A stretch of DNA of 64,000 nt from positions 6,016,001 to 6,080,000 of the forward strand of contig CM075990.1 of the NCBI GenBank assembly GCA_038087875.1, given 5' to 3'. The notes beneath the pieces were generated by a model, which made no database searches, had not been told where the DNA came from, and worked only from the letters and a program-made list of their open reading frames with translations. Made by a program: the position numbers and the translations under genes. The DNA comes from Malacoraja senta (lineage: Eukaryota). Shown piece after piece: positions 17,724-62,422 of this stretch (the stretch's first letter is position 1; every line of letters begins with the position of its first letter).

Positions 17724-17783
17724 TTAGTTATCTCCAGCACAGATCTTCAGTAGAGTATCTTTAAAATCTCCACCAGTGTCTCC
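17724..17783 (-). CDS. ANXA5-like: Annexin last coding exon [19 protein letters not shown]
   Basis: ttttcttccacag acceptor, annexin C-terminal motif, TAA stop at 17724-17726. Confidence 0.95.
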   Translation of the reverse strand, partial: GDTGGDFKDTLLKICAGDN

Positions 17784-20700
17784 CTGTGGAAGAAAAAAAA
17801 CAACAACCATTTAACGAAATCTGCTATTCTGTTGCTTGGTTTCATTTGTAAAGCTGGATTACAATTAAAACACAAAGTGCTTGGATAATACTAGGATAAT
17901 AACACCAGGATAAGCGCTCAACTGAGAAAACCAAGCCCAAAGCACTATCTAAACTGATGAAACAAACTTATACCAAGGACAATAACTAACTCCATATACA
18001 ATAATTAGCTACCTACATGTTAACAAGCACATTAAAAAAAAACAGATCGTGTTGATGCAAGTACATCATTGGGGTTATCAAGTGGCACTGGTGTTTAGTT
18101 GAGTTAGGCCCATGGCACCTCGGGAAGTCTCAACAGTTAGACTACTTCATATCTGTGCTTTTGTTAGTCTGCATATATTCATTAAAGACACTCAGGAGAT
18201 GCATTGTTGAATTATCAATTGTTTTTCCTGCAACTTTTCCAGAAGGTATTGCTTTAAAATGTGCACAAATGTATTGGTAAATAGATTTTACATACAAAAT
18301 CTAAGCTAATTTGAATTGCAAAAGAATTCAAGCTCTGTGCTGGTACTGATGGCATAGTGTAGGCAGGGTCCTGGCAGGTATGAAGAACCTGCTCAAATAT
18401 CTCACATTCCCTTTCCCAGTAATTTAAATTAATGAAGCCAAGGTTTATATTCCGACTTGGCCTGGAACCTTAAAATAACTGAGGTGGCCTGGAACCTTAA
18501 AATAACTGCTCAGGCTCTTGTTATTTCTACCTTCATTGTGTAAAACCCTTATCTGTCTGCCTGGCCTTTCCCCTTCACCTCCCAAACGTAATATGCACAC
18601 TTAAGAAATTGATGTAGGAAATTCTGAAAATTATTGTAGAAAGATGAGTAGTTTGTAATAAATTTAACTAAAGATCTTACATACTGAGGGAACTTATGTT
18701 AGGATAGGTAATAATAGATTTATCATGGTGTTTAGATTCTACAGCATAGTAAAGTTAAAATAACCATTGGGGGTGTAAATTAAGCTGAGGGGAATAAAAC
18801 TGATCAGGGAGTAGTGACTTTTATTGTGCCCATTTGTCAAATAATCGGGAGAGTGATTTTGTAAATAACAGGGGACCCAAGGTTAAAGATAACTGGTGAA
18901 ATACAAACATGAATGGCTACACAGACATTGGCCAATGATGAATTATTTCAAAAATGTAGAATCCACATGTAACCACATGAGAATATAAAAATGTAGTGGG
19001 TGTTGTGAATCTCTGAAACACTTTGGGATTTCTCCGTGTGTACTGTTAAGGCCTTGAATAAACCCACTCATTTGACAAAATCACCACTGCTCTATAAGAT
19101 ATTCTTTGTCTGTTCCTTTCTGAGCCGTGATTAAGAAGGGGAACTGGGCCCCACGTGAACTCCAGATTCAGGGAACAGGTTAACCACACAAGCAGAGCAG
19201 ATATCCATCGGGGAATGTTGCTGACAAGCCCGCTCCAGACTGCAGGAGTACGTGTTGAGGGGTGCACTGAGGCTCTGAGAGGGAGGACTACAGTCTAGGG
19301 TCCTTTCGCTGCTGGACATTGAGGGGCAGAGTCTGGTGGAGACGCATCTCAAACTAGGGAAGGGATATCACACCAGGGGGCCACATAAGTGGCAAGGGTG
19401 TAGGACAAAATTTGTAAACACTACCTTACAAACCAACGAAATGTATAGCCTCTGAGAATGTTGGAAGAATTTTGACACTTTCTCCTTTGTATATTTTTTA
19501 CTCTGAATAAAAAAGGGTTTCTAAGGAAATTAGCTAAATTTATACGTAATGTATTCCCTTCATACACAAGGTCACACTGATGTATTTAAACAAAAACAGA
19601 TGCTCTTCAAGGAGGTTTTAAGGCAGTGTACCGAAACAATTATACCAAATCAAATCAACACATTAAAAGGAATTACATTAGATTTCAAATGTAAAACTGT
19701 CAAAGGGCACAACTATCAAAAGTTGGTCAGACAGGAAATGTTTCTTTAAATAAATTCTCTTGACCGGCTTCAAGGAAATATCAATGACATACCACAATTG
19801 TAGAGTGAAGAGTCTCATCATATTTGGACTTGTAAATAGCTTTGATATCTGCCAAATCAATTTCAGAGCGAGACACCATAATTCTCATCAAAGTTTCGTC
19901 ATCGGTGCCACCACCCTGTTAAAAGACAAAACACCCATCTTCTGATGTTAATTTTGATCATTCAATATTCTTAAAAATTCCCTTCATCAAATCACTTCTC
20001 GCCTTCACTTGGCAATAGTTAAGTACGGAGGCAATGAGATTAGAACAAATCAACTCAGGCCACAGTGCTCCCCTTTCAGGCAAAGCCTAATCAGATCATG
20101 GTATAGATAGTGAAGGAAGAGCAAATTCTGCACAATGGTGCAGAAATCATGTCATCAAGTAGCACCTACTCAATGAAGCCTCCACATCTTTAGTCAGGGC
20201 ACCTAGCAGACCTGGAGGATATTACTCTTACAACAGTACAAATGTGATCCCACTTCAGCATTTGACTAGGTGCAAGCTAAACTAGGTAATCGCAATTGAA
20301 GCCTCCACACCTTAGCACTGGTGGCAGTGGGTTTGGGATTTCTTGCACCATTCCAGCAATGACCTAAACCAACACCAAAGATGAATTTAACTTTTCTGAA
20401 GAGAGCTCAAATGATAAAAACCAATAAACAATGGGGGGGGGGGGGGGGGGGGGGTGGAAGTCAAAAGGAAAGAAAATGCAAACAGATTTTAGTAAATGGT
20501 GATAATGTTAACATTTATCGTGCTCTCAAGGTAGTTAAAAACATCAAATTCCAGAGTTTAGGCAAAGGGAAATTGGAATATTCAGAGGGTTGTGGGTGCT
20601 CGGACAGGGAGGGGAGTGTTTTTGATGTAAAAGCCAATATAGTACAGAGTAAGGAATACTGAGGTAAGATACGTTGTGATATTTTGCAAAGTGGCTCAGC

Positions 20701-23516
20701 CACCAGGAGCGTTGAAGTTTGGTAGTATTGCATCCTTTAATCAGGTGCAGACTCCAACTCTCAAGAGAACCGAGTAGTATTTAAGCAGCCAGGAGCAAGC
20801 ACAAGAGAAAACATGAGAAAGAGTATGAAAGAATTGAGAGGATACCAACTTGAAGGCAAGCTGCTGGGAAGGATGCAACTTGAAAGGAATTGATATACCA
20901 AATATACCGTACCTTCATGGAATTGTACAGTTTCTCAGCAAAATAGGCTGGTATGTTCTTCGCGCATTTGACTGAGGAAAAAAAAGGATTTATTAAATAA
21001 AATCTCCATTAAAAAAATGACATTTGTACAGAATAACAGCAATTTCAAAACATTGAGATTATTATGAACAATACAGGTATTGCAGAATCTGGAATGGGAT
21101 AAAAGTAGAAAAAAAAACAAGATTTATATTATATGCATATGGGGTAAAAGAGCATTTAATTAATGCATTGCAAAGTTTCCACAATTAAGTGACAGCTCCA
21201 ATGTAGGCAATGGTTCCCAATCAAACCAGGCCAAATCAAGCAATCCCTTATCTGTGCTTAGCATGTGTGGCTGCAAAAATGGTCAAATACCTTCACATTC
21301 AACCTCACGGAACCAGCCATTTTAGAATGTAATGAGAAGTGCGACCAAATGTCCCAGCGTCATCAGCCACACACTCGCCAACCTTCTTTAAATTCTGGTT
21401 AGTTTATACACTATTTTGCCTTTTTTAATGCATTAAACAGATTTAAGAGTTTCGATATCATTTTAAAATTAGGCGACCAATGCTTATTAATCAGAGACCT
21501 TAAACACGGTAGCACCGATTTGCACTTTAAAAGGAATTTAAAAGGCAGCACCTTTAACACGGTAAGTTGTCAGGGCTATGCCAGGCCTGGTTGTCACTGG
21601 GGCTCTGATCAGCCTGTGGAAGGGCTAGGGATTGCAGGTCTGCAGTATAGTCCATCCCACATCTACCTCAACCTGAAAGAACTGGTGTAGAATTAAGCAT
21701 CAATGGCCACAGTGATCAGAAGTTGCAAAAGCCTTTGAGTAACAAATACTGGGTTTTGGAATGGGGGAGGGCAAATCCCCTGCTCTGAAGTCAAGTTAAG
21801 TCAAGTCAACTTTATTTGTCACATACACATACAAGATGTGCAGTGAAATGAAAGTGGCAATGCTTGCGGATTGTGCAAAAACTACAGAACAGAACAGAAT
21901 CAGTATTTAGGTATTGCAGAATCTGGAATGGGATAAAAGTAGAAAAAACCCCCAAAGGATTGAAATTATATGCATAAGTTCACAATCACATGTCCAGTCT
22001 CATACAATCAATTAGCTACTGTTGCAGCGGATGGGGGAAATAGCATTTAATTAATGCATTGCAATGTTTCCACTGAAGTGACAGCTCCAATGTAGGCAAT
22101 GGTTCCCAATGAAACCAGGGTCAAATCAAGCAATCCCATATGGCAGTGCCAAATACAATCTACAATTGATTCAATATTTCTTTCCAAACAAATACTGCTG
22201 CCGATACATCCTGGAAAAACCCACACCTCAGGCTGTGGAACGTAGTTAAAGAAGTGCCAAGCCACAATTGCTTAGTAATTTCAGATTTTAGAAAGCCTGC
22301 AACCAAGTATTTCCTCAGCATCCACAATAGGCTGTGAAACAGTTGCTGTGTGGTGTACCAATGTCGCAGACCTAGGTAAACTACGACATTTCTCATTGTG
22401 CACTGCAAAAGGTTGTCATGGTGAAAGGGATCAATCCCTCTTAAAGATTCAAGAGCAAATAATGATATCTTGTTCAGGTCACGATCCCAATGCTGGCTTG
22501 GGTTTTACTCAGGCAGGGTCCTCATTAAGTCTTGGAAGCAGATACCACGTGCAAAGTATAGTTTACTTTAGCATAGAGATACAGCATGGAAACAGGCCCT
22601 TCAGCCCTATCAGTCTGCGCCGACCAGCAATCCCCGCAAACCAACACTATCCCACACCCACCTGGGACAATTTACAACTTTGCCAAGCCAATTAGCCTAC
22701 AAACCTGTACATCCTTGGAATGTGGGAGGAAACCAGAGCACCCGGAGAAAACCCACGCAGGTCATGAGGAGAAAGTACAAACTCCGTACAGGCAGCACCT
22801 GTAGTCAGGATTGTGCCCATATCTCTGGCGTTGCAAGGCAGCAACTCTACCACTGTGCCACCGTGCTGCCACGAAAGCACACTTTTGCAGGAACTACGTA
22901 GCATACAACTGCTTGACAAATTAAATTTCCAAATGACAATTCATGTTAGAAATCAAGCAATATTTTAGCTTCGACCTAAACCATGATCATGTCACCAATA
23001 TTTAACAAATTATAAGTTACTTTTGCCAAGAAATCTGCTTGCTACTTAACAGCAATTATTCAATTCCGTGCATCCCTAGAACTGAGCGCTGACAAACAGC
23101 ACTGGTAAAATGAAAGCCCTGCCGCAGATCACTAGATTCTCACCGCAGCTCTCTCAGTCAGCAGTGTGAAAGTCGTGGTTGGTGTAGAGAACAATTGTAT
23201 CACGGATGATGGCAGGTTTTAGACCATAATAACTCCAGTTAACTGGTAGACAGCTTCCTATTCTCACTCGAGACATCTTTCTGCCAAAATCAGTAGGAGT
23301 CTTACCAATGGCCAACATAATACTCTGAAGATTCCCCGAGCATTCACTTGCAATGCTGTCTTCGAGATCAATGTCGTTTATCTTCTGGTACTCATCAAAT
23401 ACTGTGTGGAAGGAATAAAATAAAATGACAGAACAATGGTAGTTAAGGGGAGAATTCTGGTGGATAATATATATATCTATATCTATATCTATATTATCTA
23501 TATCTATATATATCTA

Positions 23517-23576: not shown

Positions 23577-26500
23577 TATATAGTACATACATAAATATAT
23601 ATACATACACATATATATATGAATGCATTTGGAAAGGAAGACGTCGTTTAGGGATAGTCAACATGGATTCGTACACGGGAGATCATGCCTCACAAATTTG
23701 ATTTGAGTTTGTTTGAAGTAAACTAGAAGGTTGACAAGGGCAAGGCCACAGACGTTGTCTATATGGACTTTTGATAAATGTTCTGCATGGGAGGTTGCTC
23801 TAGAAGGTTAGATTGCATGGGATCAGGGAGAGCTAGCTGCCTGGGTATAGAATTGGCTTCACAGAGGGAAGCAGAGGGTGGTGGAAGGTTGTTATTCAGA
23901 CTGGAGGCCTGCTACTCGTGGTGTACCTCAGGGATCAGTGCCAGCATATTGCCGTTTCAGGTTTATACCAATGGTTTAGATGAGAATGTACAAGGCATGG
24001 TTAGCAAGTTTGCAGATGACACTAAAGTGGGTGGTATCGTAGACAGTGAAGAGAGTAATAAAAAATTACAGCAGGATCTTGATCGGCAGAGTGAGTGGGC
24101 TGAAGAATGGCTAATGGAGTTCAATGCAGATATGTACAATGTGTTGTATTTTGGGAAGTCAAACCAGGGCTGGACCTTCAGTGAATGGTAGGGCCCGGGG
24201 GAATGTTGTAGAGCAGAGGGATCTAGGAGTACAGGTGCACAGTTCCCCAAAATTGGTGTTATAGGTAGATAGGATGGTAAGGGTGGCTTTTGGTACATCA
24301 GCCTTCATCAGTTAGCGTACTGAGTATAGAAGTCAGGACGTTACGTTACAGTTGTAGAAGACGTTGGTGAAGCCACATTGTGAGTATTGTGATTAGTTTT
24401 GGTGACCCTGCTGTAGGAAGATGTCATTAAACTGGCACGCGTGCAGAGAAGATTTGCGAGGATGTTGCCAGGACTTAAGGGCCTGAGCTACAGAGAGAGA
24501 TGGAGAAGCTAGCACTTTATTCCATTGTGAGCAGGAGGCAAAGGGGTGATCTTACAGAGGTGTATAAGTTCATGAGGGGAATTGATAGGGTGAATGCACA
24601 GTCTTTTACAAAGGGATGGGCAATCAAGCACCACAGGTTAAGATGAAAGATGTAATAGGAACTCGAGGGGCAACTTTTAACTCAGACAGTGGTGGGTAAA
24701 TGGAATGAGCTGCCAGGGAGGTAGTTGAGACAGGTATGATAACATGTAAAAGACTCTTGGACAGATACATGGTTAGGAAAGGTTTAGAGGGAAGTGGACC
24801 AAGTTCAGGCAAATGGGACTAACTTAGATGGAACATCTTGATCAGCATGGACCCGTTTCCATGCTCTTTTGCAGCACTCTTTTTAAATGTAGGTTAGATT
24901 TCCATCAAAACTCAAGACTTGCTTTCTAAGTTAATTTGCAACATTATTTAATTGCAAGTATTAAATTTCACCCAAGTCAATGATACAATAACTTTAAAAT
25001 GAATATTAATTGTTACTCAACTTGCAACTCGATTTGTTGATAGGGTGGAGAAGAACAAGTAACACGCCTGCTCACCGAAATATCCAATTTACGACAGGAA
25101 ATTGGTTAAATCCTTGTAAGAAATAGTAGTTATTGTTACCTGCCAACAAATGGGGGATGCTCCTGGAACAGATAATGGAAATGAATCTTTCTTCATCTGT
25201 ACCCCAGGCATTTTCACCAGCCTCATAAAGAGTCTTAAAAAACAAAAACAAATATCAAGTAATGAATCACCTATACAATTCAGTTAATTCTCTCAGACAA
25301 GTGAGAAAGCTTTGCAAGCTTTGGGACGGCACATCGTGGAGCATTAGAGCTGCTGACTTAGTGCCAGAGACCTGGGTTTGATCCTGACTACGGGTGCTGT
25401 CTCTACAGAGTTTGTGCGTTCTCCCTGTGACACTCGTGGGTTTTCTCCGGGTGCTCCGGTTTCCTCCCACACTCAAAAAATGTGCAGGTTTGTAGGTTAA
25501 TTGGCTTCGGTAAAACTGTAAATTGTCCGTAGTGTGAAGGATAGCACTAGTGTATGGGGTGATCACTGGTCGGCACAGACTCGGTGGGCCGAAGGGTCTG
25601 TTTCCGTGCTGTATTTTAAACTAAGCAGTTAAATTGTCACCGACACTGAAATACAACATACTCCCATGGTAAAGCATACTTCTCAGCTTCAGTTCGATGC
25701 AATTGATATGACTAAAAAAATCTGTACCCACAAGTGATACACCATGTGTCCTTAAAGTACAATTCATATCTCCAGGCAATTGTATACCACCACAATCTTG
25801 AGGAAATTGAATCAAAGTGATTGTGAGAGCCTAAATAATTCAGAGATACAGCCTTACTACAACAGACTGTTAAGGGCCTGTCCCACTTGGGCGTCATTTG
25901 CACGTCACGCAGATGGCGCGTGAAGATTTTGTACATCCCAAAATCCTGGGGCGCCGCGCGCCACTGCCTACATCACCACGCACCATGCGCGCATCACATG
26001 CGCGTCGTGCTTCGTGGCATGTAAATGATGTTGCGTAAATGGCGCGCAAATGACGCCCAAGTGGGACAGGCCCTTTACTGTATAACAAAGAACAGCAAAT
26101 CCATTATGCCACCATGCTTCACTTGAATTTTAAAACAATAATCATAGAAGGAATTAATGTCAAATCTCTTAAGGCAGATGTGGTCAGAGGGTTAAAATAA
26201 CTATCACATAAAAATAGAAAATATGTACTTTCAGCATGGTGGCGTAGCGCTAAAGCTACTGCCATACAGCAGGATTGATCCCCGTCTACGGGTGCTTGCT
26301 GTACCGAGTTTGTACATTCTCCACGTGACCTGCGTGGGTTTTCTCCGAGATCTTGGGTTTCCTCCCACACTCCAAAGACGTATGTACAGACTTGGGTTAA
26401 TTGGCTTGGTACAAATGTAAATTGTCCCTAGTGTGTGCAGGAAGGTGTGCGGGGATCGCTGGTCGATGTGGACTCGGTGGGCCAATGGGCCTGTTTCCAC

Positions 26501-29500
26501 GTTGTATCTCTAAACTATTGTCTTAACAGACATTTGTAGGTCACTGCACACAATTGTCTGAAGTTCCAAGAATGATTAAAAAAATACAAGTGAGGAGATT
26601 TGAAGTTAAAATCATAAGGACAATCAACAAAATTAATGTTCACAAGATTTCAAATTTGTAATTGTTCTGAAAAGCAATTAGCAGCAATCAAGTTCAAAAT
26701 AAACTACTGTTAAAAAAAACTACATGCCATGGCAACACGCTCCCAACTTCATTACACAGTAATAACATCAGGATTTAAATAAGGAGTTAATTTGCCACGT
26801 TTCCAGAGACCTAATAAATTGGAAACTACAAGCCAAAGACAAAGATGATTGTAATGAAATGAGAAATTATGATCTGCTCCAAAGCATCGATGGCATTTCC
26901 TTCCACAGATGCTGCCTGATCTGTGGAGTTCCACCAGCAGTTTGTTTTAGCACTATGAAATAACGTCAACAAAAATAGACAGCAGCAGTTCCAAAAGGCT
27001 GTTTAAAAGCAATTAAGGATGAACAATAAATGCTGGCCTTTGCGAGATGCCCAGAGACCAGGAGAAAATTAAACGCCAAAGTCTAGCAGGATCAGGCAAG
27101 TAATTTAATTCAATTATTGTAGAGGTTATTTATCAATTTTTCAAGATAGTCAAGTGGCCTGTATGTCACCAAGAAATCCTGCTCAACAAAAAGACTAATT
27201 GGCATTTTAACATGTCAATGTCTAACTGGCCATCATTGAACAAATCCTGACAACCCATGAGGCTCCTTTCAATACATCACATACACAAACCAAAACCACA
27301 GTGCCTATTGTGTCTCCCAGCATCACACTGTCTATATATACCTGCCCAGGTGACAAATTGTCCACACCTACTGGAGATAGTTGGCTAGACAGGAGATAGA
27401 CTGTCTGGGTAACTGTCACTCCTCACCTTTGCATCTTCTTCTGCTTGAGATGAATCAGCGCCTGCTTCACTTCTGTTACCCTAAAAAACAGGAATGCATT
27501 TAATCTTCTGGTTTTGCTTATTTTAAATAGTGTCTGCGGCAGAAATGACAACTAGAAACTTGAAAAGACAAAAAATGAATTTAACCCAATGCTCATTGAT
27601 TAGAAAATAGAAACATAGAAAATAGGTACAGGAGGCCATTTGGCCCTTCGAGCCAGCACCGCGATACACTGTGATTAGAGTGATTCTCTGATCACAGGAC
27701 AAATAGAAACGATAGGCACGTAATTTGTTCTTTTTAGATGCACATTGATAGTCACAATAGTAGCAGAGTTGTCATTCCATAGGCAGTACTGATACTTCAT
27801 GGTGAAGACGATGAATTACGTGCAACCTTCAATGAATAAGGAATTGCGTAGGTTCACTTTGCAAAATCTATGTTTTGATAATCTTTCACAGCAGATGATT
27901 GAAAGGAGATCTACTAACAAAAATAAATCACATTCTTGCAATAAACAGAATGCAGTAGCTACAGCTGTAGGGAGTATAGTCTATGCACTTAAACATACCA
28001 GCAGGGCACGGTGGTGCAACGGTAGAGTTGATGCCTTACAGAGCCAGAGTCCCGGGTTCGATCCTGACTATGGGTGCTGTCTACACGGAGTTTGTACGTT
28101 TTCCATGTGGGTTTTCTCTGGAATCTCCAGTTTCCTCCCACACTCCAAAGACGTACAGGTTTGTAGGTTAATTGGCTTGGGATGAATGTAAATTGACTCT
28201 AGTGTGTGTGCAGCATAACGTTAGTCTGCGGGGCTCGCTGGTCAGGGGGGACCCGGTGGGCCAAAGGGCCCGTTTCCATGCTGTATCTCTAAACTCAACT
28301 CCAACTGGACTCCAAATGCAATGGCAGGAGCAGTGGGAAAAAGAAAGTATCAGCTCAATGACAAAATGTTACAGAGTTTTCACTTTTGCACAAAAGGACC
28401 AAACCTTGCACAGACAATCCTGTGGGCAAAAAACAAAACAAATGAACACTTAATGTGAATGTCTTAAACTAACCCAAACCCCAAGTGCCAGATTTCAAAC
28501 CCAAACAATTCTGCAAGGTGATGAGCAATTTTTAATTTAGGTGTTGCAGTGTGTAATTAGACGTCATGCTCTTTCATTCACTGGCCACTGTCTCACCTCT
28601 CCAGACCTATTCCCCATCAGTACAGAGCAAGGAATAGACCTGGGTCTCTACTTGGGCCATGTGAGAAAACCCAGTCAGAGTTGCAGGTCCAGGAAGGCTG
28701 AGGACCAGGAGACATGCACAACAACTGTAGTTCACTGCGCCAGCATAGAAGCAAAGATCCTATAGCGGAACAAGATGGACCACTCCTGCTAAATGCAATG
28801 GGCTGACGTGTAGTACGCAACGGAACGTGGGCCTTTTTTTCATCCATTTCCGTAACCGGACCCGACCCGACTCGCAGTGTAATCAACGTTGCGGGGGAAC
28901 AGTTTATGTTAATAAATTTAAATTCTGAAAATGAGAAGATTTTTCCCAAATAACTTATATTTTTACGAGGATGTTTCCGTAACCGGCTTCCATCTCCGCA
29001 CTAGTATCCTATGGGATCTTTGGTGTGGAGACGGAAGCCGGTTACGGAAATGGGGCCTATAATTACCCATGAATCTGCCCATGACCGTACTACGTCTTTT
29101 TCGTCGAGTGGACTATCTTGCTTGCTATAGGATCTTTGCATTGAAGTGTGGAGCCCCTACCTCAGACTTGACAAGATTAACATTACATGGAGATATTGGA
29201 ATATTAGCATGAACTGGGTTCGGCCTCAAAGGCAAAGCAAGGGTCATTAAAAACCAGCATACTTCCTCAGGCTCAGATGATTAAAGGAAAATTAAATCTT
29301 CAGTCAGAATGGTTTTGATGCAAGTAACGAATACACAACTCTAATTGAAGTAATAATTTGTAAACACTTGGAGGTTTTAAAGATTTAGATGCCCCAAGGC
29401 ACCTGTTGGAAACATTGTCACATGGAGATGTTAAGAACAAAAAAAGTCCAAAAGCCTGCTCAAAAAAGGTACATTTTAAAGAACATAATTAAACAAAAAC

Positions 29501-32500
29501 ATTATGCAGGAGCTGGAAATCCTTGTTCTCCGACTCAGACTGGATCCTGCAGTGGCTACCTAACCTGATGAGCATTTTCAGAATGTTTTTGTAGATTGAG
29601 GAGCCACTTTAAACAATATCTGAGTTGGATGGCAAAACCCATGTCTGATGCACAAGAAACTGGAGACCTCAAATGGTGTAAATCAGAAAACTCAGGAGAG
29701 AGAAGGCCATGGATATTATAATAGCAGCTGTGAACCAGTGTTCTGCTGAGGAGTTTCAAGGAAGAACGTTCCCAGTGGAATTAATGCTCCTCCATCAACT
29801 TGGGAAAGGCTAGTTAGAAAAACAGTCCTAAAGATAAGTAATTCTTCATTTCCCTCCACAGATGCTGCCTGACTTGCCGACTTCCCCCAGCACTTTGTTT
29901 TTTGCTCACTATCGCATAAGGGGTAAAATTCATATTTCTTCCATTTATTCACCTAATATTTCCTGTTCCACTTGCCAAGTGCAGTATCAGATTTCACAAC
30001 TAATCTCTTCACTTTATAATTTTGGCTTATCAAAATGGCGAGTCTAGGGGATTAAGCAATGAGAAAAAGGCCACAACATCAAATTCTTAAAATCCACAGA
30101 TTAATTAACAGCAGCAGTCAAACTTATAGTGCAAGTTATAATGTTTCAATCACTTCACCTCATCGTTTCTACCTTTAAAAGGCATTCAGGCCTCTTCTTC
30201 CAACTGTCATTGTTCTCTACAACTCAGTCCTCCATTTATGCTATCCAAGATTTTACCCATCATTAGACCAGCCTTTTTCCATTCAGGTCTTCCAAATTCC
30301 AAATCTGCTTGAACAACTTAATTTGTGACTAAGCATTTGGTCCATGGTCTTAAAATCTCATGCGACTTCAATTGCCTTTCAGCAATTCTCATGGTGGCGC
30401 AGCAGTGGGGTTGCTGTCTTACAGGGCACAGAGACCTGGGTTCGATCCTGACTACGGATGCTGTCTGTAAGGAGTTTGTACGTTTTCCCCGTGACCGCAT
30501 GAGTTTTCTCCGGGAGCTCCGGTTTCCTCCCATGTTCCAAGTGGCTTCTGCAAATTGTCCCTTGTGTGCAGGAAGGAACTGGTTAGTGTCTGGGTGATTG
30601 TGGTTAGTGTCTGGGTGATTGTGGTTAGTGTGGACTTGGTGGGCTGAAGGGCCTGTTTCCATGCTGCATCTCTAAACTAAAATCCATGAGATGCCTTGGG
30701 ATATTTTTACCACCTGAAAGATGTATAGCAGCTATAAACTGTGGATTGCTATGGTGACAACAAATTGCCCAAAACATTAAAAGAAAAAAATAATGGACAT
30801 TAGTGTATCATGTCAAAACCAAATTTACAACTGGGATGTATTTTCTTGAAACACACAATGTTTCATTAGATCAGGTCCTTGCACAAACAATAGAATGATG
30901 AACATATTCAGACATTCAACATGGAATAAAACAAAAAAAATATATACCTGAACTAGGGAAACCAGAACTCGTTCAAAATAACCTGATGTGTCGGAGGTGA
31001 GGTCCTCTTCCAAATCAGATTCAAAGTCTGGAAAATAAAACAATATTGGTTATGAAAATTCTCAGAAATACCCCCACAATTAAAATGTGGATTATAGAAA
31101 TGACGGAGACCTTACACTTGGAAAGAATTAGACTTGTCCTGTTGGACAAACAGGAACTATTCGTCGGAACATGGTCTCTTTATTGACTATTTAAAGGGTC
31201 AGAATGGTTCAGCACAAGAACCTGACTAACACCCGTGCCAAGGAATAGATGAAAGGTTATACTCTGAAATGTACGAATATATCTCGAACGAAGTTTTTTA
31301 TCGTAGTAAATTATTCCATTCTTCTTTATTATCTTTTTTTTTTTTTGTTTTGTTTTTTGTTTCTTCTCTTTTTTCTCTTTCTTTCTTTATTTCATCTATA
31401 TCTTTTTAGTTCTATTTAGTTTTAAAAAAAATTTTTTTTTTAAAGTATTGGAGACATTGTAATAATAATGGACGATATTAGTAATTTAAAAACGTAAGAC
31501 TGGTATCGATTTTAATATGATATGTATCTACCTCCAATAAAAAATAATTTCACAAAAATTCTCAGAAATGACCAAACTGGCAAGTAACCGACACGTGTAT
31601 TCTAGACAGACAGTTGGCTTAATGAGAGCAATTTAAATATTTTTCCAGAAAATTAGAGGCTGTAATGTACCGGAAGCTAAAGTTGTCACCGGATAGAAAT
31701 CCAAGAGAGAATGTAGGACATACAACCATAAGACATAGGAGCAGAATCAGGCCATTCGGCCCAACGCATCAGCTTCACCATTCTATCATGGCCAATCTAG
31801 TTTTCCTTTTTAACCCCATTCTCCTGTCTACTCTCTGTAATCTTTGATCCTCTTACTAATCAAGAACCTATCAATCAATTAAACAAAATCTTGTGGGGAG
31901 AAAAGCTTGAAGGAATATGAACTATGGCACAGACGGATAAAAATGGTCTGTGTTAGTCATAGAGCCATAATGCATGGAAACAGGACCTTTGGCCCAACTC
32001 ATCCACGTCATCCCATACAAGATGTGTAGGAAAGAACTGCAGCTGCTGGTTTAAATCGAAGGTAGACACAAAATGCTGGAGTAACTTCAGTCTGAAGAAG
32101 GGTCTCGATCCGAAACATCACCCATTCCTTCTCTCCAGAGATGCTGCCTGTCCCACTGAGTTACTCCAGCATTTTGTGTCTGCCCCATACAAGATAGTCC
32201 CATTTAGCCAAAGTCCAAAGGAGATGTGCGCAGCGAGGTTTCTAACCAAGATGTTCCAGTGGGAAGATAGATACTGAAAATTGTGGAATAAATATTCAAA
32301 TAACTTAATGATAAAGTTAAAATAGGAAGAAAATAGAAATTAATGGATAAGTTTAACATCAAGCCAGAAACCCTTTCTGCCTATTATAGGCTGTGGTATA
32401 AGAAAGGGGAAAAACTGGTGTGCAGTTAAAACCTAGAGAATAGAAAGCATGAACCAATAACTACTGCCCTCAAGGAAATTTGCAATTCTTATTCCAATCT

Positions 32501-35500
32501 GATTTTCAGCTACAAAACTGCTACAATAATGATCTCAAGGGACAAGTCACTCAGTCAGCTGCTGAGAAACATAGTCAGCACACAAGGCAAACATAGTCTT
32601 CAGAATCTAAGGAGAAAAATAATGACTTCCCTAACTTCACATGTTACATAATGGTTTATGAGATGTTTCAAAAATCATGGTTTCATGGTTCAAAAATCAA
32701 ACCCAGACCCAAACTCAATTTAGCCTGTTCAGTCATCCAGGATTCAAAATAGGAGTTATAGGAACAGGAAACCTCTCCTTACAATAACATGGCCTTTGGC
32801 TAGTACAGGTAGTTCTGCTAGAATACGCGTTACCACAACACAAATAACAAATTAGGGAACACAATTTGCATATGCGGGCCAAATTAGTTATAACACAATA
32901 TTGTTCGGGAACTAGGTACCACTTATGTTGGAAACTGAGAAGTAGACATAGAAAGCTGTCTTAGATTTACGCAGAACAGAGGGGATATAATTTCCACATA
33001 GTAATCAGACACCACTGTCTCTTAAGCGCGCAACTGCTACTTTAACCATGGGTGGCTTTTGAAATTAACAAACAATCGCTTCTATTAATAAATAGTCTGA
33101 AGAAGGGCCTCGACCCGAAACGTCGCCCATTCCTTCTCTCCAGAGATGCTGCCTCACCCGCTGAGTTACTCCAGCATTTTGTGTCTACCTTCACCTGAAT
33201 GGATACTTGTGCAACAATACTATGTAGCATTCAGCTTCTATTTAAAAAAGACCTTCATTTTTGTAAGGAAGATAGACGCAAAAAGCTGGAGTAACTCCGC
33301 GGGTCCAACTTTACATCATTTTTGTAAGCCCTGCCGGAAAAATACCTTTGTTATAGAGTCTGAAGCTGTAGCTCCAAATTCCCTTTTTCCCCCATGTCTT
33401 TATGGTATGAAATTTTATAACACATGGTTTCTTAGGAATGCTTTTAGTAGAACTATCCACATCTCAAAGATTTTTTGATGAAAATCAAACAGCTCATGCC
33501 CTCTTCAGCTTTCTGCTCCCTTGCCTCCCACAATCAGCCTGAAGGGAACTGAAACAACACCTGTCTATGCTCTTCAGAGATGCTGCCTGACCTGCTGAGT
33601 TATGCCAACATTTTGTCATTTGTGATAAACCAACATCTGCAGTTCCTTGTTTCCACAACTCATGATAGAAAAGCTTTGGATCTTTCTTGCAATATTAGTG
33701 ATAAAAAGAAAAATGCAGCTCAATTCACCAGATTTTAGTCAATTCTCCTGTGCGCCCATCTTTTCTTAAACCATTGTGCCAAAAGTTGGGTATTTACAAT
33801 TGATTAGACTTTTTTTTTTAAAACTTCCAATGGCCATAGTGTTAGCATACCTTCTTTATAAACTTCCACAATCCTGTGGATTTCGTCATTATTGCGAGAT
33901 GCTAAGATTTCAACCAGGACGCCCTCAGATGTCCCAGCACCCTGAGGAAAACAAACAATTAAGGAATCATACTCTAGATTGAAGACAAAATATGGCCATC
34001 GTTCAGTCATCCCATGAACGTGCACAGGAAATGCACATTAGCAAATGTCCCAAAAGCCTTTCTCCAAATTCTTGGTATGAATGCACAAATTGGGATAGGA
34101 TTTCAGACCAGTTGTCAAGGCATAAACCTCACTAGAATAATGCTTTACCTCAGTTACCCTTGGTCACCACCTGTCCAGACAGAGAAAGTCTGAAAGACCA
34201 AAAAAGTAGATCACATTACTCCAGTTCTGAGGTCTTTACACTGGCTTCATGTCTGTCAAAGAATTGATTTCAAAATACTACTGTTGGTTTACAAAGCACT
34301 GAATGGTTTAGGGCCAAAATACATTTCTGATCTTCCGCTTAGCTACGAACCACCCAGACCTCTCAGATCATCTGGGACAGGTCTGCTCTGTGTCCCCAGA
34401 GTCAGAACTAAACATGGAGAGGCAGCATTTATATTTTATGCACCACATATCTGGAACAAACTCCCAGAAAACTGCAGGTCTGCTGCAACTCTCAGCTCTT
34501 TTAAATCTAGACTGAAGACTTTTCTGTTTGCCGCTGCCGTTCAGTAAACAATACAATTTATTAATTACCTATACTGCACTGTAACTTCTATTCCTGGTTT
34601 TATTCTATTTTAAATATTTTATTTGATTGCTTTAATTTTGTAATTATTTTATCTGAATAATCTAATAATCATTTTATAATTAAATGTCATTTTATATGTG
34701 TTTCTTTCAAATGCTTTAAATGTTTTATGTAAAGCACTTTGAATTACCTTGTGGTTGAAAGGTGCTATACAAATAAACTTGCCTTGCCTTGCCTTGCCTT
34801 GAAATCCCAAATCTTGAATCATCTGATTTTCAAATCCTGTTCATTCCAATAGTCTATTGCCACAGAAGGCTGTGGAGGCCAAGTCAATGGATATTTTTAA
34901 GGCAGAGATAGATTCTTGATTCGTACAGTGTCAGGGGTTATGGGGAGAAGGCAGAGAATGGGGTTAGGAGGGAGAGATAGATCAGCCATGATTGAATGGT
35001 GCAGTAGACTTGATGGGCTGAATGGCCTAATTCTGCTCCTATCACTTTTGACCTCCACTTTTCTGTGAGGTATAAATGAGAGTGGGTCAATGCATACACC
35101 AGCTGGGCAGCAGAAGCAGCTTAAAGATGACCCGATGCAGGTGTACAAAATTTAGGGGTACAGACACATTTTGGACAGCAAGATTTTTTTTTAAACAACA
35201 GACTTCCAAAACCAGAGGGTTACAGAGAGGGGGAAAGAATCAGAATACAGTTGACTCTGGAACTGCCTGAGGTAGTAGATACAGGACCAATACCAACATT
35301 TTAGTAGCTAGATGAGCACTTGCATTGCCAAGGCAACAAAGAGAACAGGTGAAGGGCTGATAAACGGGATTAGTGCAAATGGGACATGGTAGGATGGGGG
35401 ACTTGTGTTGCTTGATTCTATGACAAATATCAGTTCTTCCCCATATTTTGTCACCCAACCTTCAAAATTAAACCCTTATCAAGCAGATGCTATATTTCAC

Positions 35501-50500: not shown

Positions 50501-51856
50501 AGATAATTCAAAGGCAACAAATCCAGAGGTTCAGCTTTGTGTTTTAAATGTTTTGGAAAATAAAAGATTGTTTTTGATATCCGATTTAAATCTCATTGTC
50601 CACAAACATTTCCACCCTAAGTTCGAACAAAGATAATACAGCAACCAAGAACAGACTTCCTCCTCCACACTTTATAGAACAAAACCAAGTTTTTTATCAG
50701 CTTGTATTTGTGGAAACATTAAATGTTACTTTTTAAGACATTTGCTAAAATGTAACAATCCCATGTGTGGCTTGACCCACTGAGCATTTCCCCATTTCTC
50801 CTTCAGACCTGTGGCATTTATTTAATTAGCTCCGAGTTGCTATGCAAACATCTGAAACAAGAGAAAATCCATGGTGTGGGCAGAGCATGGAGACAATGAA
50901 TGCATTCTTGATCTTATCCCAGTTCATCTGACTGCACATTACTGCCAGCATGCTGATTTAAAAAACAGAAACAGTTAGGCATGTGATTTACCCCTGCCCC
51001 AAAACCCCCCAACAACTTAGTACCACAACTCAAATAATTTTCAATGAACCATCACTTTTTCCATTGTTGGCTTCTTCAACAATGGGGGGGAAATATCCAT
51101 AGCAATTTGATAGTGGGATGATTTTTGTGGGTGTCCCAATGGCAAGTTTCTCATGACCTTCTTCCCATCACTAAAGATTTCTTTATGCAAAGCTCTGTTC
51201 ATATCCCCCCCCCCCCCTCCTCATCAACAAACAGACCACTCCGTTTTTCACTGCTAGAAAAAAGAGTAGGGAGACAAAAATAATTTGGCAGCAAGTGGGT
51301 GGGGGTGAAAGAAATTAAGAAAAGTGATTATTGGTCAAGGGTCAGCTCAGGCAGTGCATGCCACTTTAGTTACTACATGATGTAATTTAGGAGAAACAAA
51401 CAGAAATACGCAGCCTTCTTTTATTCAACCAACCAATTAAGAACGTACACAGCACAATCACACTATGCCATAATACACTATGCCAGAATAATTACTATCC
51501 TTGAAAGGAATTTAGTCATATACTTTTTTGTAACACTGCCATCAAGAAAGTTTTCTGTAAATTGCATCATTTTCTAAAGAAGTTGGTTTGCAACTTTATT
51601 TCACTGGCATGAGAGTAATGACAAGCAGCACCTACCACGCAAATGAAAATAAATTGTTGCCTTAATATAGCTGCATTTGTTGGCAATCTTTCATTGTAAA
51701 CCTTTTCTGGGATCTAGGTGGAGTATTTGAACGTAGTAAAATACCAATGTGTAGAACCACTACGCCTACCAACAGCTGGTGAATCATTTCACACTAGCAC
51801 CACACAATTTCAGACAACTCAATTCTGATTCCACTTACCCCGCCTTTGGCTGCCAT
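17724..51856 (-). CDS. ANXA5-like: Four-repeat annexin (ANXA5-like), 323 aa; join of 12 coding exons: 51839-51856, 41455-41542, 40459-40553, 37903-38016, 33851-33941, 30948-31027, 27427-27480, 25140-25233, 23306-23401, 20913-20971, 19793-19915, 17724-17783
   Basis: All introns are GT-AG and exon phases are consistent (972 nt in total). Core exon sizes 95/114/91/80/54/94/96/59/123 match the vertebrate annexin pattern. Protein: [55 protein letters not shown]...[25 protein letters not shown] exon lies downstream, as for human ANXA5. Exact orthology is unproven. Confidence 0.93.
19793..19915 (-). CDS. ANXA5-like: Annexin exon [41 protein letters not shown]
   Basis: 123-nt exon, [11 protein letters not shown] motif. 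Confidence 0.97.
20913..20971 (-). CDS. ANXA5-like: Annexin exon (V)[19 protein letters not shown]
   Basis: 59-nt exon, PAYFAE motif. Confidence 0.96.
22560..22870 (-). mobile_element. V-SINE (HE1-like)
   Basis: Reverse-complement of A box, V-domain and gggcctgtttccatgctgtatctct tail. Confidence 0.85.
23306..23401 (-). CDS. ANXA5-like: Annexin exon (V)[31 protein letters not shown](V)
   Basis: 96-nt exon, AG/GT bounded. Confidence 0.95.
23466..23620. repeat. Compound (TA)n/(TG)n/(CA)n microsatellite
   Basis: Seen directly. Confidence 0.9.
23625..24870 (+). mobile_element. CR1-type LINE, degenerate RT through 3' end
   Basis: [12 protein letters not shown] motif, CR1 C-terminal motifs, 3' end ccgtttccatgct. 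Confidence 0.88.
25140..25233 (-). CDS. ANXA5-like: Annexin exon [31 protein letters not shown](V)
   Basis: 94-nt exon, WGTDE motif of repeat 3. Confidence 0.96.
25325..25620 (+). mobile_element. V-SINE (HE1-like)
   Basis: tRNA head, V-domain, CR1-type tail. Confidence 0.85.
25873..26074. mobile_element. PIF/Harbinger-type MITE, subfamily B
   Basis: TIR AGGGCCTGTCCCACTTGGGCGTCATTTGC, TTA TSD. Confidence 0.85.
26236..26517 (+). mobile_element. V-SINE (HE1-like)
   Basis: tRNA head, V-domain, CR1-type tail. Confidence 0.85.
27427..27480 (-). CDS. ANXA5-like: Annexin exon [18 protein letters not shown]
   Basis: 54-nt exon, tttttag|GGT...AAG|gtgag; repeat 2-3 linker. Confidence 0.9.
28005..28295 (+). 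mobile_element. V-SINE (HE1-like)
   Basis: tRNA head, V-domain, CR1-type tail. Confidence 0.85.
28752..29138. mobile_element. hAT-type non-autonomous DNA transposon
   Basis: TIR CAAAGATCCTATAGC / GCTATAGGATCTTTG; 8-bp TSD catagaag / cattgaag (one mismatch). Confidence 0.75.
30390..30680 (+). mobile_element. V-SINE (HE1-like) with an internal 21-bp tandem duplication
   Basis: tRNA head, V-domain, (tggttagtgtctgggtgattg)x2. Confidence 0.8.
30948..31027 (-). CDS. ANXA5-like: Annexin exon (D)[26 protein letters not shown]
   Basis: 80-nt exon, AG/GT bounded, DTSG motif. Confidence 0.96.
31070..31554 (+). mobile_element. 5'-truncated L1-type LINE with a 15-bp target-site duplication
   Basis: [13 protein letters not shown]-terminal motif, T-rich 3' UTR, AATAAA/A-rich tail; aaaattctcagaaat at 31055-31069 and 31555-31569. 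Confidence 0.8.
32024..32183. mobile_element. Inverted Penelope-derived repeat pair with a 12-bp direct repeat
   Basis: cccatacaagat at 32012-32023 and 32184-32195; core ctgaagaagggtctcgatccgaaacatc. Confidence 0.75.
33095..33190 (+). repeat. Penelope-derived terminal repeat with hammerhead-like core
   Basis: ctgaagaagggcctcgacccgaaacgtc at 33097-33124. Confidence 0.7.
33851..33941 (-). CDS. ANXA5-like: Annexin exon [30 protein letters not shown](D)
   Basis: 91-nt exon, AG/GT bounded, GAGT motif. Confidence 0.96.
34190..34801 (+). mobile_element. L2-type LINE 3' end
   Basis: [50 protein letters not shown] and (CTTGC)n tail. Confidence 0.88.
34850..35045 (+). mobile_element. CR1-type LINE 3' end
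   Basis: gccacagaaggctgtggaggcc...ggcctaattctgctcctat. Confidence 0.8.
36337..36563. mobile_element. PIF/Harbinger-type MITE, subfamily C
   Basis: TIR AGGGCCTGTCCCACTTT, TAA TSD. Confidence 0.85.
37903..38016 (-). CDS. ANXA5-like: Annexin exon [38 protein letters not shown]
   Basis: 114-nt exon, AG/GT bounded. Confidence 0.96.
38342..39028 (+). mobile_element. GC-rich non-autonomous retroelement with a LINE-like tail
   Basis: GC head, T-rich tract, G run, internal ggacttaccatc repeats, AATAAA and (GAACTT)n. Confidence 0.6.
39790..40383 (+). mobile_element. GC-rich non-autonomous retroelement, same architecture, different tail
   Basis: Same head, T tract and G run; AATAAA and (TCTGAT)n. 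Confidence 0.6.
40459..40553 (-). CDS. ANXA5-like: Annexin exon (G)[31 protein letters not shown]
   Basis: 95-nt exon, AG/GT bounded, GTDE motif. Confidence 0.96.
40950..41330 (+). mobile_element. Degenerate L1-like ORF2 3' fragment
   Basis: W..FLDTI..L and LYNVEQIRY (compare LHLEKIRY). Confidence 0.4.
41455..41542 (-). CDS. ANXA5-like: Annexin exon [29 protein letters not shown](G)
   Basis: ttag|GGA...TTTG|gtaag; start of annexin repeat 1. Confidence 0.95.
41680..41916. mobile_element. PIF/Harbinger-type MITE, subfamily C (inverted relative to the 36337 copy)
   Basis: Same TIR and internal sequence, TAA TSD. Confidence 0.85.
43190..43480 (+). mobile_element. V-SINE (HE1-like)
   Basis: tRNA head, V-domain, tail. 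Confidence 0.85.
44140..44430 (-). mobile_element. CR1-type LINE 3' end, inserted in a decayed Rex1-like fragment (about 43540-44740)
   Basis: [19 protein letters not shown] motif and CR1 3' UTR. Confidence 0.85.
44770..45020 (-). mobile_element. Penelope-like element 3' end plus terminal repeat
   Basis: [12 protein letters not shown] end of ORF, then the ctgaagaacggtttcagcccgaaac repeat. Confidence 0.75.
45300..45630. promoter_or_regulatory. CpG-rich island inside the long annexin intron; possible promoter
   Basis: Dense CpG, YY1-like GCCATTT, possible + strand donor GAC|GTGAGC; no match to other repeats in the window. Confidence 0.35.
46550..46755. mobile_element. Fold-back Penelope-derived repeat pair
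   Basis: Inverted arms around gtgaagaagggtttcggcccgaaac; flanks cactgattaaa / caccgattaaa. Confidence 0.75.
46805..47295 (+). mobile_element. Penelope-like element fragment: GIY-YIG endonuclease C-terminus followed by the terminal repeat
   Basis: FAEHLHSVR...[33 protein letters not shown], followed by ctgaagaaggg...gcctgacccgctgagt...gcagtt. Confidence 0.8.
48500..49466 (+). mobile_element. GC-rich non-autonomous retroelement, related architecture
   Basis: cagcagcc head, T tract, G run, CpG-rich body, AATAAA and (ATT)n tail. Confidence 0.55.
49645..50275 (-). mobile_element. CR1-type LINE 3' end
   Basis: [43 protein letters not shown]; tail next to (ctatgttt) repeats. Confidence 0.92.
51839..51856 (-). 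CDS. ANXA5-like: Annexin first coding exon (MAAKGG); exon 51839-51872 includes 16 nt of 5' UTR
   Basis: Polypyrimidine tract plus AG acceptor, strong Kozak AACCATGG, GGG|GTAAGT donor. Phase 0 fits the next exon. Confidence 0.75.
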
Positions 51857-52389
51857 GGTTCAGTAAGAAAATCTGTTTTAAAACAGAAAAAAAAGGATAA
51901 TTTATTGTAGCTTCTCCACACCTCCTGAAATATTTCAACAACACATTAATAACACGACAAGAGCAAATAAGAATTACATGATACCTCTGACAATCCTGCT
52001 ACAAAGAAAAATGTTCCCAGTATGTGGCTGTCTGAAACTCGAGAAAGAAGGCCTGCCTTTTCTCTGAGGAAAGACTCTGGCGGCAGCTTAGGGATTGGTC
52101 GAGAGATTGGAAGCATATTTAAATAATTTAGTCATGGAAAAGAGTTAGCCTATAAGAAGCAACTTGTCAGAAAACCTCTGTGGGTGCAGCAAAAACCAGC
52201 ACTGAACTCTGTTGTAATTGTCAGATAATTCAGGGCACTGAAGGTGAACGGTTTCCCCAGCAATGCCCATCACTGATACGCAGGTTAAAATCCCCAAACT
52301 GTGCCAAATCAGAAAAGTTTACAGCAGAGAGAGGAAGAGGAAATGTTTATCCTTGTTTTGATTAACCTCACCGATCTTACAATATGTTT

Positions 52390-58390: not shown

Positions 58391-58589
58391 GATATGTTGC
58401 TCCAGCATGTTGTGTCTATCTTATGTCATAAACAGATTGGGTTGATAAGTAGCCCTCCAGAAAGCATGCCATCCTGACCTGGAAATATATCACCCTTCAT
58501 TTATTGTTGCTGGATTAACATCTTGGAGCTCCGAAGGCAGTGGCATTTTAAAGTACCGTCTCCCCACCTTCTTACACCTTCCGCAGGAG

Positions 58590-60374: not shown

Positions 60375-60820
60375 AAAATATACATAGAGCATAATACAGT
60401 ACAGCACAAGAACGGGCCCTTCACCTCACAATGTTTCTGCTGAACACAATGGCAAATCTCATCTGCCTGCACATATCCCTCTATTCCCTGCACTTCCATG
60501 TGCCTATTCAAAAACCTCTTAAGTACCACTATCATATCTGCCTCCACCATCACCACTCCTGGCAGTGCTTTCTAGCCCCCCCACCTCTATGTAAAAAACT
60601 TCCCCCCTCTCACTTTATAGCTACGCCCTCTAATGTTGGACATTTCTGCCCTCGGAAAAAAGTTCTGACTGTCTACCTTATCTATACCTCGCCTGATTGT
60701 ATACACTTCTATCGAGTATCCCCTTACCTCCAATGTTCCAGATAAAACAATCCAAGTCTAATCAACTTCTCCCTGCAGCCAAAACCCTCTAATTCAGGCA
60801 GAATTCGGATAAATCTAATC
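60375..60820 (-). mobile_element. Degenerate CR1-type LINE 3' region
   Basis: VVEAD..FKR.L.RHM-like C-terminus and CR1-type tail. Confidence 0.65.
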
Positions 60821-61866
60821 TGAACGCTCAACAAAACATGTGGATGTACTGTTTTTAGTTCACTGGATCAAATATGTTTTTGTAAAAGAAACAATATAGC
60901 ATCAGCCTGTTGTCACAGCAGCATCTTTTAATTCCTATTGACCTGAGAAGCCAAATTCTGGAGCTTTCACATACATTGAAAATAAAAGTAAATATTCTGA
61001 GTTCAGGCACACTATGGGAGAAGGGGCCCTGTGGCTTAGAGTAGTGAAGGATACAGGCCCCTATGGATGCAGGACACAAGGCCTTGTGGATCAAGGGGAT
61101 GGGGGCTCATGAATCTAACGACATGATATGTGTTAAGCGATGACAAAGCCGAGTGAGATGTTCCAATTTCCACAGCATGAATCCACCTTCACTGGCTGGG
61201 AAACTGGGGACCGAGATCCACCAGCCCACCTGGAGAGCACCACGATCTCACAAACAGGCATCGGGTCAGGCAGCAGATCATTTTCTGGAGCTTTTCAAGG
61301 AGAGATTTGTGAGTCTCAAGCTCCAGACAGTGCAGCTGCTGGAGAAAGTAGGGCTGGGATAGGGGTGGGGAAAGACTAATCGGTGATCAGGGAGCTGTCC
61401 TCAGTCTAGACATCCAGCAGCAGTGGCAGGCCCACATCTTCATTTCTAATTGGCCAGTCATGTGGTTTGCATATCCAACACCAGACTGCAGAAACAGGCA
61501 TTGTACTGGAGGCAAGGGTACAGTTAAAATGGGATTGATCACCCACAGATGCTGCCTGGCTTGCTAAGTGTTTCTGCTTTTATTTCATATCTGCAACATC
61601 TGCACTGTTTTGTTTTGATTTTTAAACACCAATGCATGGATGCGCTGACTGGCTGAAGGTTAACATCTCCTGTACCTAGAAATGGGAAGGGGAAAGAAGT
61701 CATGTTAAGATCACACACAGTTTTCAGTTCAACGTCTGGAACCCTTCATTGAAATATATACTGAAGTTGAGGAGAAAAACACACAGACCAGGAGAGTTGT
61801 CGGAAAAAAAAACACATGGAAGAAAGATATGGAACACCATGAAATTAGGTGGAAGCAGTCAAGTAT

Positions 61867-61872
61867 TTTATT
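61867..61872 (-). terminator. Candidate polyadenylation signal (AATAAA) of the upstream annexin
   Basis: tttatt on the + strand, downstream of the stop at 62357. Confidence 0.4.
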
Positions 61873-62356
61873 TTTGAAAGACAGGCCATGACCTTTGACC
61901 CACTATTTACCAGAAGCTATTAAATAGTAAATGCAAACACAATATGCAACATGCTGAGCACTAATGACCATCAGGTCAAGAAATGCAGACATTTAATTTT
62001 ACATTTATCCCTTTGTTTAATGTTGACAGATTGCTGCTTCTTTTATCTTGTACAAGAATGCTTTTTGTTTAGGCTGAATTTTTAATACAAAGATTACAAA
62101 GCAGAGAGGTTGGAAAATAACAAATATGTACTGCGTATTTGGACGTTTTGGTAAAATTGACTCAAACATGAAATGTATTGGCAAACTGGTTATAAATATC
62201 GGAATCCAACTCTGCATTTAATCTGTTGAAGGACCTGCAAATTACAAACTGTTATCCTCACCTTTGTCACACAGAACATAAATAAATTGCGAATGAAACT
62301 GTGGATAATGCACCATATTCTAAGTCATGGCCTAATTGTAAAGCAGCCGATCTACT

Positions 62357-62422
62357 TCATTCATCTTCTTCCTTTCCACAGACTCGCAGCAAGATCTTCC
62401 GGAAATCACCTCCCACGTCATC
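62357..62422 (-). CDS. Last coding exon of a second, upstream annexin (DDVGGDFRKILLRVCGKEEDE*); the rest of the gene is presumably beyond the window end
   Basis: tttcccaatag acceptor, phase 0, annexin terminal motif xDxxGDFxxxLLxxCG, TGA stop; AATAAA about 490 nt downstream. Confidence 0.85.
   Translation of the reverse strand, partial: DDVGGDFRKILLRVCGKEEDE

Follow-up and report, generated by a model that had tools for sequence, protein, structure and literature searches.

A head-to-tail pair of annexin genes before a QRFPR-like exon in Malacoraja senta, the downstream gene grouping with ANXA8

The annexin pair and the neighbouring QRFPR-like exon

The window, the whole stretch of 64,000 nucleotides analysed from Malacoraja senta (assembly GCA_038087875.1, contig CM075990.1, positions 6,016,001 to 6,080,000), carries a four-repeat annexin gene, the last coding exon of a second annexin, and a lone exon of the QRFPR family, all on the minus strand (Table 1). 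The first of these, gene B, has 12 coding exons running from the ATG at 51856 to the stop at 17724, and its coding length of 972 nt gives 323 aa plus TAA. Its introns span 1-10 kb, and all are of the GT-AG type with consistent phases. The second annexin, gene A, lies on the same strand with 10.5 kb between its stop and the gene B ATG. When 205 stored annexins were compared with the window by tblastn, 11 of the 12 gene B exons were matched, the exception being the 6-codon first exon, and beyond gene B the sole convincing annexin exon was 62419-62366 (E 0.009). The acceptor and leader of the ATG exon imply a 5' UTR exon of gene B upstream of 51872. The coordinates given in the initial annotation (an annexin at 51856-17724 and an annexin last exon at 62357-62422, on one strand) were exact, and its description of a head-to-tail pair followed by a QRFPR-like exon is borne out by the exon models and PDB matches.

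Table 1. Coordinates of the annexin exons and the QRFPR-like exon in the window.
Feature	Position	Strand	Details	Basis
Gene A last coding exon	62357..62422	-	stop-bearing, end of repeat 4; 66 nt, AG acceptor, 21 codons + TGA	
Putative 3' UTR of gene A	62021..62356	-	ATTAAA at 62222, 62086, 62021	run X1 contigs 62129-62424, 62040-62158 (RNA status guessed)
Gene B first coding exon	51839..51872	-	34 nt; AG acceptor, 16-nt leader, ATG 51856, 6 codons	
Gene B coding exon 2	41455..41542	-	88 nt	exon model + tblastn
Gene B coding exon 3	40459..40553	-	95 nt	exon model + tblastn
Gene B coding exon 4	37903..38016	-	114 nt	exon model + tblastn
Gene B coding exon 5	33851..33941	-	91 nt; strong ANXA8-type signal	exon model + per-exon likelihood
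Gene B coding exon 6	30948..31027	-	80 nt; strong ANXA8-type signal	exon model + per-exon likelihood
Gene B coding exon 7	27427..27480	-	54 nt coding for the 18-aa connector of repeats 2 and 3, with a one-residue deletion as in ANXA6 C-halves	
Gene B coding exon 8	25140..25233	-	94 nt	exon model + tblastn
Gene B coding exon 9	23306..23401	-	96 nt	exon model + tblastn
Gene B coding exon 10	20913..20971	-	59 nt	exon model + tblastn
Gene B coding exon 11	19793..19915	-	123 nt	exon model + tblastn
Gene B last coding exon	17724..17783	-	60 nt incl. TAA	exon model + tblastn
Lone QRFPR-family exon	14212..14273	-	62 nt; AG/GT intact, open frame	best PDB match QRFP receptor (E 0.0013)

The 323-aa model of gene B aligns with annexins end to end and contains four repeats of ~70 aa, and its orthologs carry PF00191. 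Type II calcium loops of the G-x-G-T type occur in all four repeats (residues 36, 108, 191, and 266), with the acidic caps E, D, E, and D. By the group A criteria of repeats and calcium-site motifs, gene B is an intact four-repeat annexin; its Atlas label is 'annexin' and nothing finer. Judged from these motifs and from established annexin biochemistry, its product is likely an ordinary annexin, in which all four sites are intact and membrane binding depends on calcium. Like ANXA8, ANXA5, and ANXA4, it would be cytosolic, with a mass of 36 kDa, and would attach to anionic membranes through its four repeats when calcium is present.

For the gene A exon, comparison with the PDB gave 63 sequences at E values up to 10, and all 60 of those listed were annexins or annexin fusions, the best with an E of 8.5e-6. 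No annexin penultimate exon of gene A was found in 62423-64000, the 1.6 kb up to the window end, and the remainder of the gene would lie beyond it. Since the last intron of gene B is 2.0 kb, such a gap is ordinary. The 21 residues score highest against bird ANXA4 (66), teleost ANXA3a (65), and coelacanth ANXA8 (64), and the gene B clade gives the lowest mean score among ten groups (47.8). This low score, together with an end unlike those of the cartilaginous-fish ANXA5, ANXA6, and ANXA11 sequences compared, marks gene A as a further annexin, which likely encodes another calcium-dependent membrane-binding protein. A subfamily call failed, as 21 residues are too few; the likeliest guess from them is ANXA8 proper. 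Among the rows compared, the Lys after the terminal Cys-Gly is common only to gene A and coelacanth ANXA8. A two-row alignment search that included the exon gave three matches among 16 candidates, none of them gene A. The stretch that follows the stop is likely the 3' UTR of gene A. One contig of run X1, which stems from another organism, covers the gene A exon at ~94%, with 17 mismatched letters and 3 gaps over a length of 297, and the two gaps listed both fall in the UTR.

The gene A exon ends with the TGA at 62357, and because GT is absent from the final 21 nt it offers no donor for an ANXA6-like read-through keeping repeat 4 whole. The 34-nt ATG exon of gene B is out of frame for a phase-0 join. 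ANXA6, with eight repeats, is a probable fusion of duplicated ANXA5 and ANXA10, according to PMC4830063. Like ANXA6, the pair described here has one annexin unit following another in the same orientation, and the second unit shows the one-residue deletion of the ANXA6 C-half. Unlike in ANXA6, the first unit closes with a stop and offers no donor, the second starts from an ATG exon of its own, and no single frame links the two by way of a linker exon. Gene A and gene B are thus likely transcribed separately, each yielding its own four-repeat protein. The best 14 orthologs listed for gene B, found with P0006 (94% identical) standing in for the spliced gene B product as query, are 319-324 aa long. 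The run X1 contig at 62129-62424 ends 2 nt into the gene A acceptor at a depth of 824, and three intron contigs have a depth of 12; as run X1 is RNA by guess and contig depth does not rank expression, this contig end gives a weak hint of separate genes. Four guessed-RNA runs on 44001-64000, swamped by repeats, contained no joint between the two genes among the 15 joints listed of 2752. In a search with exon 11 for longer proteins, a weak probe, none of the 91 candidates was an eight-repeat protein with a match above 58%.

Downstream of gene B, only one QRFPR-family exon was found, of no assignable subtype. Motif scans, comparison of two candidates with the PDB, and a Pfam search of 110 minus-strand frames in 1-17700 gave no other QRFPR exons, including 5' ones.

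Phylogenetic position of gene B

Trees were built from 47 rows under LG+G4 and from 33 rows under the LG+C20 mixture model, with one mis-cut row, one mis-trimmed row, and six redundant rows left out before the latter. Gene B belongs to a clade of rays, sharks, and chimaera (support 100/99), which is placed by these sequences before the chimaera-shark split because it includes the chimaera member, Callorhinchus P0115. This clade joins the Latimeria ANXA8-like protein P0150 and Petromyzon P0186 with support of 96/90 (47 rows, LG+G4) and 95/93 (33 rows, LG+C20). It also remains with ANXA8 when the lampreys are removed (SH-aLRT 99.3), and with ANXA8 and the lamprey gene when the invertebrate outgroup is removed (99.6). 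The monophyly of gene B and ANXA8 is recovered with ANXA8 represented by one sequence, P0150, whose best four-repeat PDB match is human ANXA8 at 374.9 bits versus 349.2 for the next; the sampling includes no ANXA10, and the shark ANXA6 C-halves are two partial models. The true ANXA5 of Callorhinchus, P0200, falls with bony-vertebrate ANXA5 (100/97) and separate from gene B, ANXA5 and the N-terminal half of ANXA6 (ANXA6-N) are sisters (100/96; 100/97), and a grouping of gene B with ANXA5 is rejected (p-AU 0.019). By these trees, gene B is not ANXA5 and groups with ANXA8.

A chondrichthyan-specific duplication of ANXA5, which the initial annotation had offered as its alternative, is contradicted by this rejection, by the reach of the gene B clade to the chimaera, and by the last exons of gene A and gene B, which are identical at 28 of 57 nt and have flanks without homology past short repeats. 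Because the last exons have diverged to this extent, the pair is judged from sequence to be old and not a recent duplicate of ANXA5. The refuting condition set in the initial annotation, a clustering of the two genes as a recent duplicate of ANXA5, is thus not borne out, and the trees place gene B away from the ANXA6 C-half (ANXA6-C).

Within its group, gene B may be either the cartilaginous-fish ortholog of ANXA8 or an old tandem paralog of ANXA8. The AU test does not reject a grouping with ANXA8 from which the lamprey gene is excluded (p-AU 0.32-0.40). In free trees, gene B is sister to ANXA8 plus the lamprey gene and outside both, and the C-terminal half alone places it as sister to ANXA5, ANXA6-N, ANXA8, and lamprey (99), again outside with respect to ANXA8. 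The join of ANXA8 with the lamprey gene was flagged by the tree tool as long branches meeting. Gene B shares a clade with ANXA8 (coelacanth P0150; human PDB 1w3w) in every full tree, and the two have in common 12 coding exons of annexin-type sizes, 56% identity (P0150), and residues in exons 5-6. In contrast to gene B, ANXA8 of coelacanth and human has a Trp-Trp N-terminal peptide, and its repeat 2/3 connector is 19 aa in coelacanth and one residue longer, 20 aa, in human, as opposed to 18 in gene B; gene B also differs in having a second annexin just upstream. It resembles the ANXA5-QRFPR1 locus in that a four-repeat annexin is followed by QRFPR-family sequence, here one QRFPR-like exon of no assignable subtype, and it has 54-57% identity to ANXA5.

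Chromosomal setting

In PMC4208404, four QRFPR subtypes are described, with QRFPR3 located beside NPY4R on gar LG5, the Hsa10 member of the paralogon, and with QRFPR2 and QRFPR4 on the Hsa8-type gar LG1. ANXA11 is located at human 10q22-q23 (PMC4830063), and annexins are treated as members of this paralogon in PMC2453138. In Stegostoma (zebra shark), the gene B ortholog P0093 and the ANXA11-clade protein P0176 are given with a longest contig of the same length, 27,959,306 bp. In the trees, a short branch joins P0176 to bony-vertebrate ANXA11 as its sister (100/100 in the 47-row tree; 98/95 in the 33-row tree). The zebra shark gene B ortholog and ANXA11 therefore appear to share a chromosome, on the strength of one shared figure from another species. 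Since ANXA11 is at 10q22-q23 and QRFPR3 is on the Hsa10-type LG5, this apparent linkage, which comes from a species other than that of the window, makes it likely that the locus is the Hsa10-type ANXA8/QRFPR3 paralog of ANXA5/QRFPR1. The initial annotation had labelled it the ANXA5 locus, a label that conflicts with both the grouping of gene B with ANXA8 and the apparent linkage of its zebra shark ortholog to ANXA11.

The locus is probably best explained by gene B being an ANXA8-lineage annexin, likely at the ANXA8/QRFPR3 copy, that lies downstream of a long-diverged and separately transcribed gene A. The ANXA8/QRFPR3 locus would share its origin, by copying of one locus, with ANXA5/QRFPR1 and ANXA6, and the ANXA8-lineage gene would have sat before QRFPR, as ANXA5 does on the sister chromosome. 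The second annexin of the pair may be a long-standing neighbour or may stem from an old tandem duplication. If gene B is the old tandem paralog of ANXA8, gene A would be ANXA8 proper. This likely reading would put right the naming of an annexin clade found in sharks, rays, and chimaeras and add an ANXA8-QRFPR copy to the ANXA5/ANXA6 paralogon. It would also provide a trace of a QRFP receptor for cartilaginous fishes, among which PMC4208404 reported no certain one in elephant shark.

Relation to ANXA6 and other explanations

Exon 7 is where gene B resembles the C-terminal half of ANXA6. A connector pattern recovered 119 segments from 207 stored proteins, missing many proteins, most ANXA3 among them; 38 of these segments are 18 aa long, 67 are 19 aa, and 14 are 17 aa. 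The one-residue deletion that gives 18 aa is common, among the 119, only to the gene B clade (15/15) and ANXA6-C (23/23), as opposed to 0/67 of the 19-aa segments, and the ANXA6 deletion is also visible in PDB ANXA6 alignments. The 18-aa connector is a diagnostic found in this analysis and no published criterion. The 19-aa connectors belong to ANXA5, ANXA6-N, ANXA8, ANXA11, ANXA3, lampreys, and an invertebrate, with ANXA4 also at 19 aa, and the 17-aa connectors are all from ray-finned ANXA5-type proteins. By comparison of these lengths, the exon 7 loop is prone to indels, having changed at least twice elsewhere, and the deletion shared by gene B and the ANXA6 C-half is likely convergent, having arisen twice.

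The initial annotation had suggested that the pair may preserve the unfused counterpart of ANXA6. Under this explanation, X and Y of a pre-tetraploidization order X-Y-QRFPR-TNIP would have fused to ANXA6 on one chromosome while remaining separate at this locus, with gene A as X (ANXA8), gene B as Y, the ohnolog of ANXA6-C, and the likeness of gene B to ANXA8 due to gene conversion by its neighbour or to the long ANXA6-C branch. We regard this as rather unlikely, since whole-protein tests mostly reject it, though the slot before QRFPR and the shared deletion speak for gene B as the C-half counterpart. The order of gene A, gene B, and the QRFPR-like exon puts gene B in the slot expected for Y, taking the human gene orders as the initial annotation gives them. 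The resemblance of gene A to coelacanth ANXA8, in score and in the shared Lys, also fits X. Exon 7 favours gene B with ANXA6-C by +6.9 lnL (LG) and +3.8 lnL (C20), and the clustering of this signal exceeds that of permuted data (p 0.009 and 0.037) for a segment chosen post hoc. However, part of the exon 7 residues common to gene B and ANXA6-C also occur in ANXA4 and the invertebrate outgroup and are thus ancestral, and the indel-prone loop weakens the deletion as a marker. An exon 7-8 tree gave no resolution.

Across the other exons, the signal runs the opposite way. Only exon 7 clearly favours ANXA6-C, whereas exons 4-6 and 9-12 favour ANXA8, so that conversion would need to have replaced almost all exons apart from one, although introns of 1-10 kb lie between them. 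With all taxa, a grouping of gene B with ANXA6-C is rejected under the mixture model (p-AU 0.014), on a fixed backbone (0.008 and 0.004), and in two further placements (0.0008-0.006), and escapes rejection in the fast search alone (0.058). The ANXA6-C stem is long (0.48), and rejection fails when ANXA8 and the lamprey gene are left out (p-AU 0.17). Also against the pairing, the calcium motif of repeat 3 is retained in gene B and lost from ANXA6-C. ANXA10, named in PMC4830063 as the relative of the C-half, was absent from the 207 stored proteins (searched by name), from the PDB matches listed, and from the alignment of PMC2453138. Rays have ANXA6 elsewhere (Mobula, 190-Mb versus 72-Mb contig). 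It is accordingly doubtful that cartilaginous fishes keep an unfused ANXA6-type tandem on the ANXA8 chromosome, with gene A as the N-half ohnolog and gene B as a calcium-competent C-half ohnolog partly homogenised with its neighbour. If they do, the state before fusion of the only vertebrate annexin with eight repeats would survive in the pair, and two living separate genes would allow a direct test of how ANXA6 arose, in its fusion order, timing, source of the linker exon, and C-half losses.

It is quite improbable that gene B is instead a fourth ohnolog of ANXA5, ANXA6-N, and ANXA8, located by QRFPR2 or QRFPR4 on an Hsa8/2p-type chromosome and lost in bony vertebrates. Its place outside ANXA8 plus lamprey in free trees would suit such an origin, as would an N-terminus like that of the lamprey gene and unlike that of ANXA8, the position of several shark and ray orthologs on small contigs of 23-28 Mb, and the gar LG1 location of QRFPR2 and QRFPR4. 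P0176 would then have to be a slow ANXA11 ohnolog, against its short branch beside bony-vertebrate ANXA11, and the AU test leaves room for gene B with ANXA8 to the exclusion of lamprey. Very improbable is the possibility that the exon at 62.4 kb is an isolated relic or that the pair is a recent ANXA5 duplication. The lack of an upstream annexin exon before the window end and of a gene A protein in the two-row search would be expected of a relic. Against this, the frame, acceptor, and cap residue of the exon are intact, polyadenylation-like signals follow it, a contig of another organism covers it, and the gap is ordinary by the last intron of gene B; a recent duplication is opposed by the AU result with ANXA5 and by the diverged last exons.

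The ANXA8-lineage reading of gene B extends to orthologs in other cartilaginous fishes (P0005-P0009, P0092-P0100, and P0115), which are 69-94% identical to it: 94% in P0006, 89% in Rhinoraja, 78-85% in other rays and sharks, and 69% in Callorhinchus P0115. Annotations of the gene exist in several genomes, but its database name varies by species between 'annexin A5-like' (mostly), 'annexin max1', and 'annexin A8-like protein 1'. A literature search thin in subscription journals, and with them in the primary papers on annexin evolution, gave no paper on the gene B clade or the tandem, and the parts of PMC8037771 and PMC6032224 available add nothing on evolution. A metagenome scan returned one marine locus, at 55%.

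A QRFPR-like exon downstream of the annexin tandem

Beyond gene B, the 12-exon annexin of the head-to-tail pair, lies a QRFPR-like exon with an open frame. The 3.4 kb between this exon and the stop codon of gene B yielded no QRFPR 5′ exons, and neither did the rest of the window; 3′ exons were likewise not found within window positions 1-14200. The QRFPR-like exon may be a relic of a receptor gene. One study could identify no QRFP receptor with certainty in the elephant shark (PMC4208404).

Other features of the window

In the non-LTR retrotransposon, the PF00078 reverse transcriptase is broken across two frames. The 149-nt stretch, a possible exon, is without a match in PDB or Pfam. Among the CpG-rich stretches, that at 48.4-49.2 kb has a GC content of 55-62% and low repeat depth, and could serve as an alternative promoter within the first intron of gene B.

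Features located in the window
Feature	Position	Strand	Remarks
Simple repeat, long	4620-5250		purine/pyrimidine dinucleotide-type
Candidate exon, 149 nt	6092-6240	-	good AG acceptor, GTGAGT donor, one open frame
Non-LTR retrotransposon	11233-13345	+	reverse transcriptase PF00078 + PF09004
QRFPR-like exon	14212-14273	-	open frame, splice sites intact
CpG-rich stretch	45201-46800		
CpG-rich stretch	48401-49600		
CpG-rich stretch	55601-56800		

Annexins of other species

The Petromyzon annexin P0186 was grouped with ANXA8 and gene B, and has its first five residues in common with the latter. The Stegostoma protein P0176, named 'annexin A4-like' in the database, falls in the ANXA11 clade of the tree and carries a long N-terminus of Pro, Gly, and Tyr. 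Two long models, P0102 from trout (541 aa) and P0109 from Denticeps (566 aa), have an ANXA5-type C-terminus and may be gene-prediction fusions of teleost tandem ANXA5-type genes.
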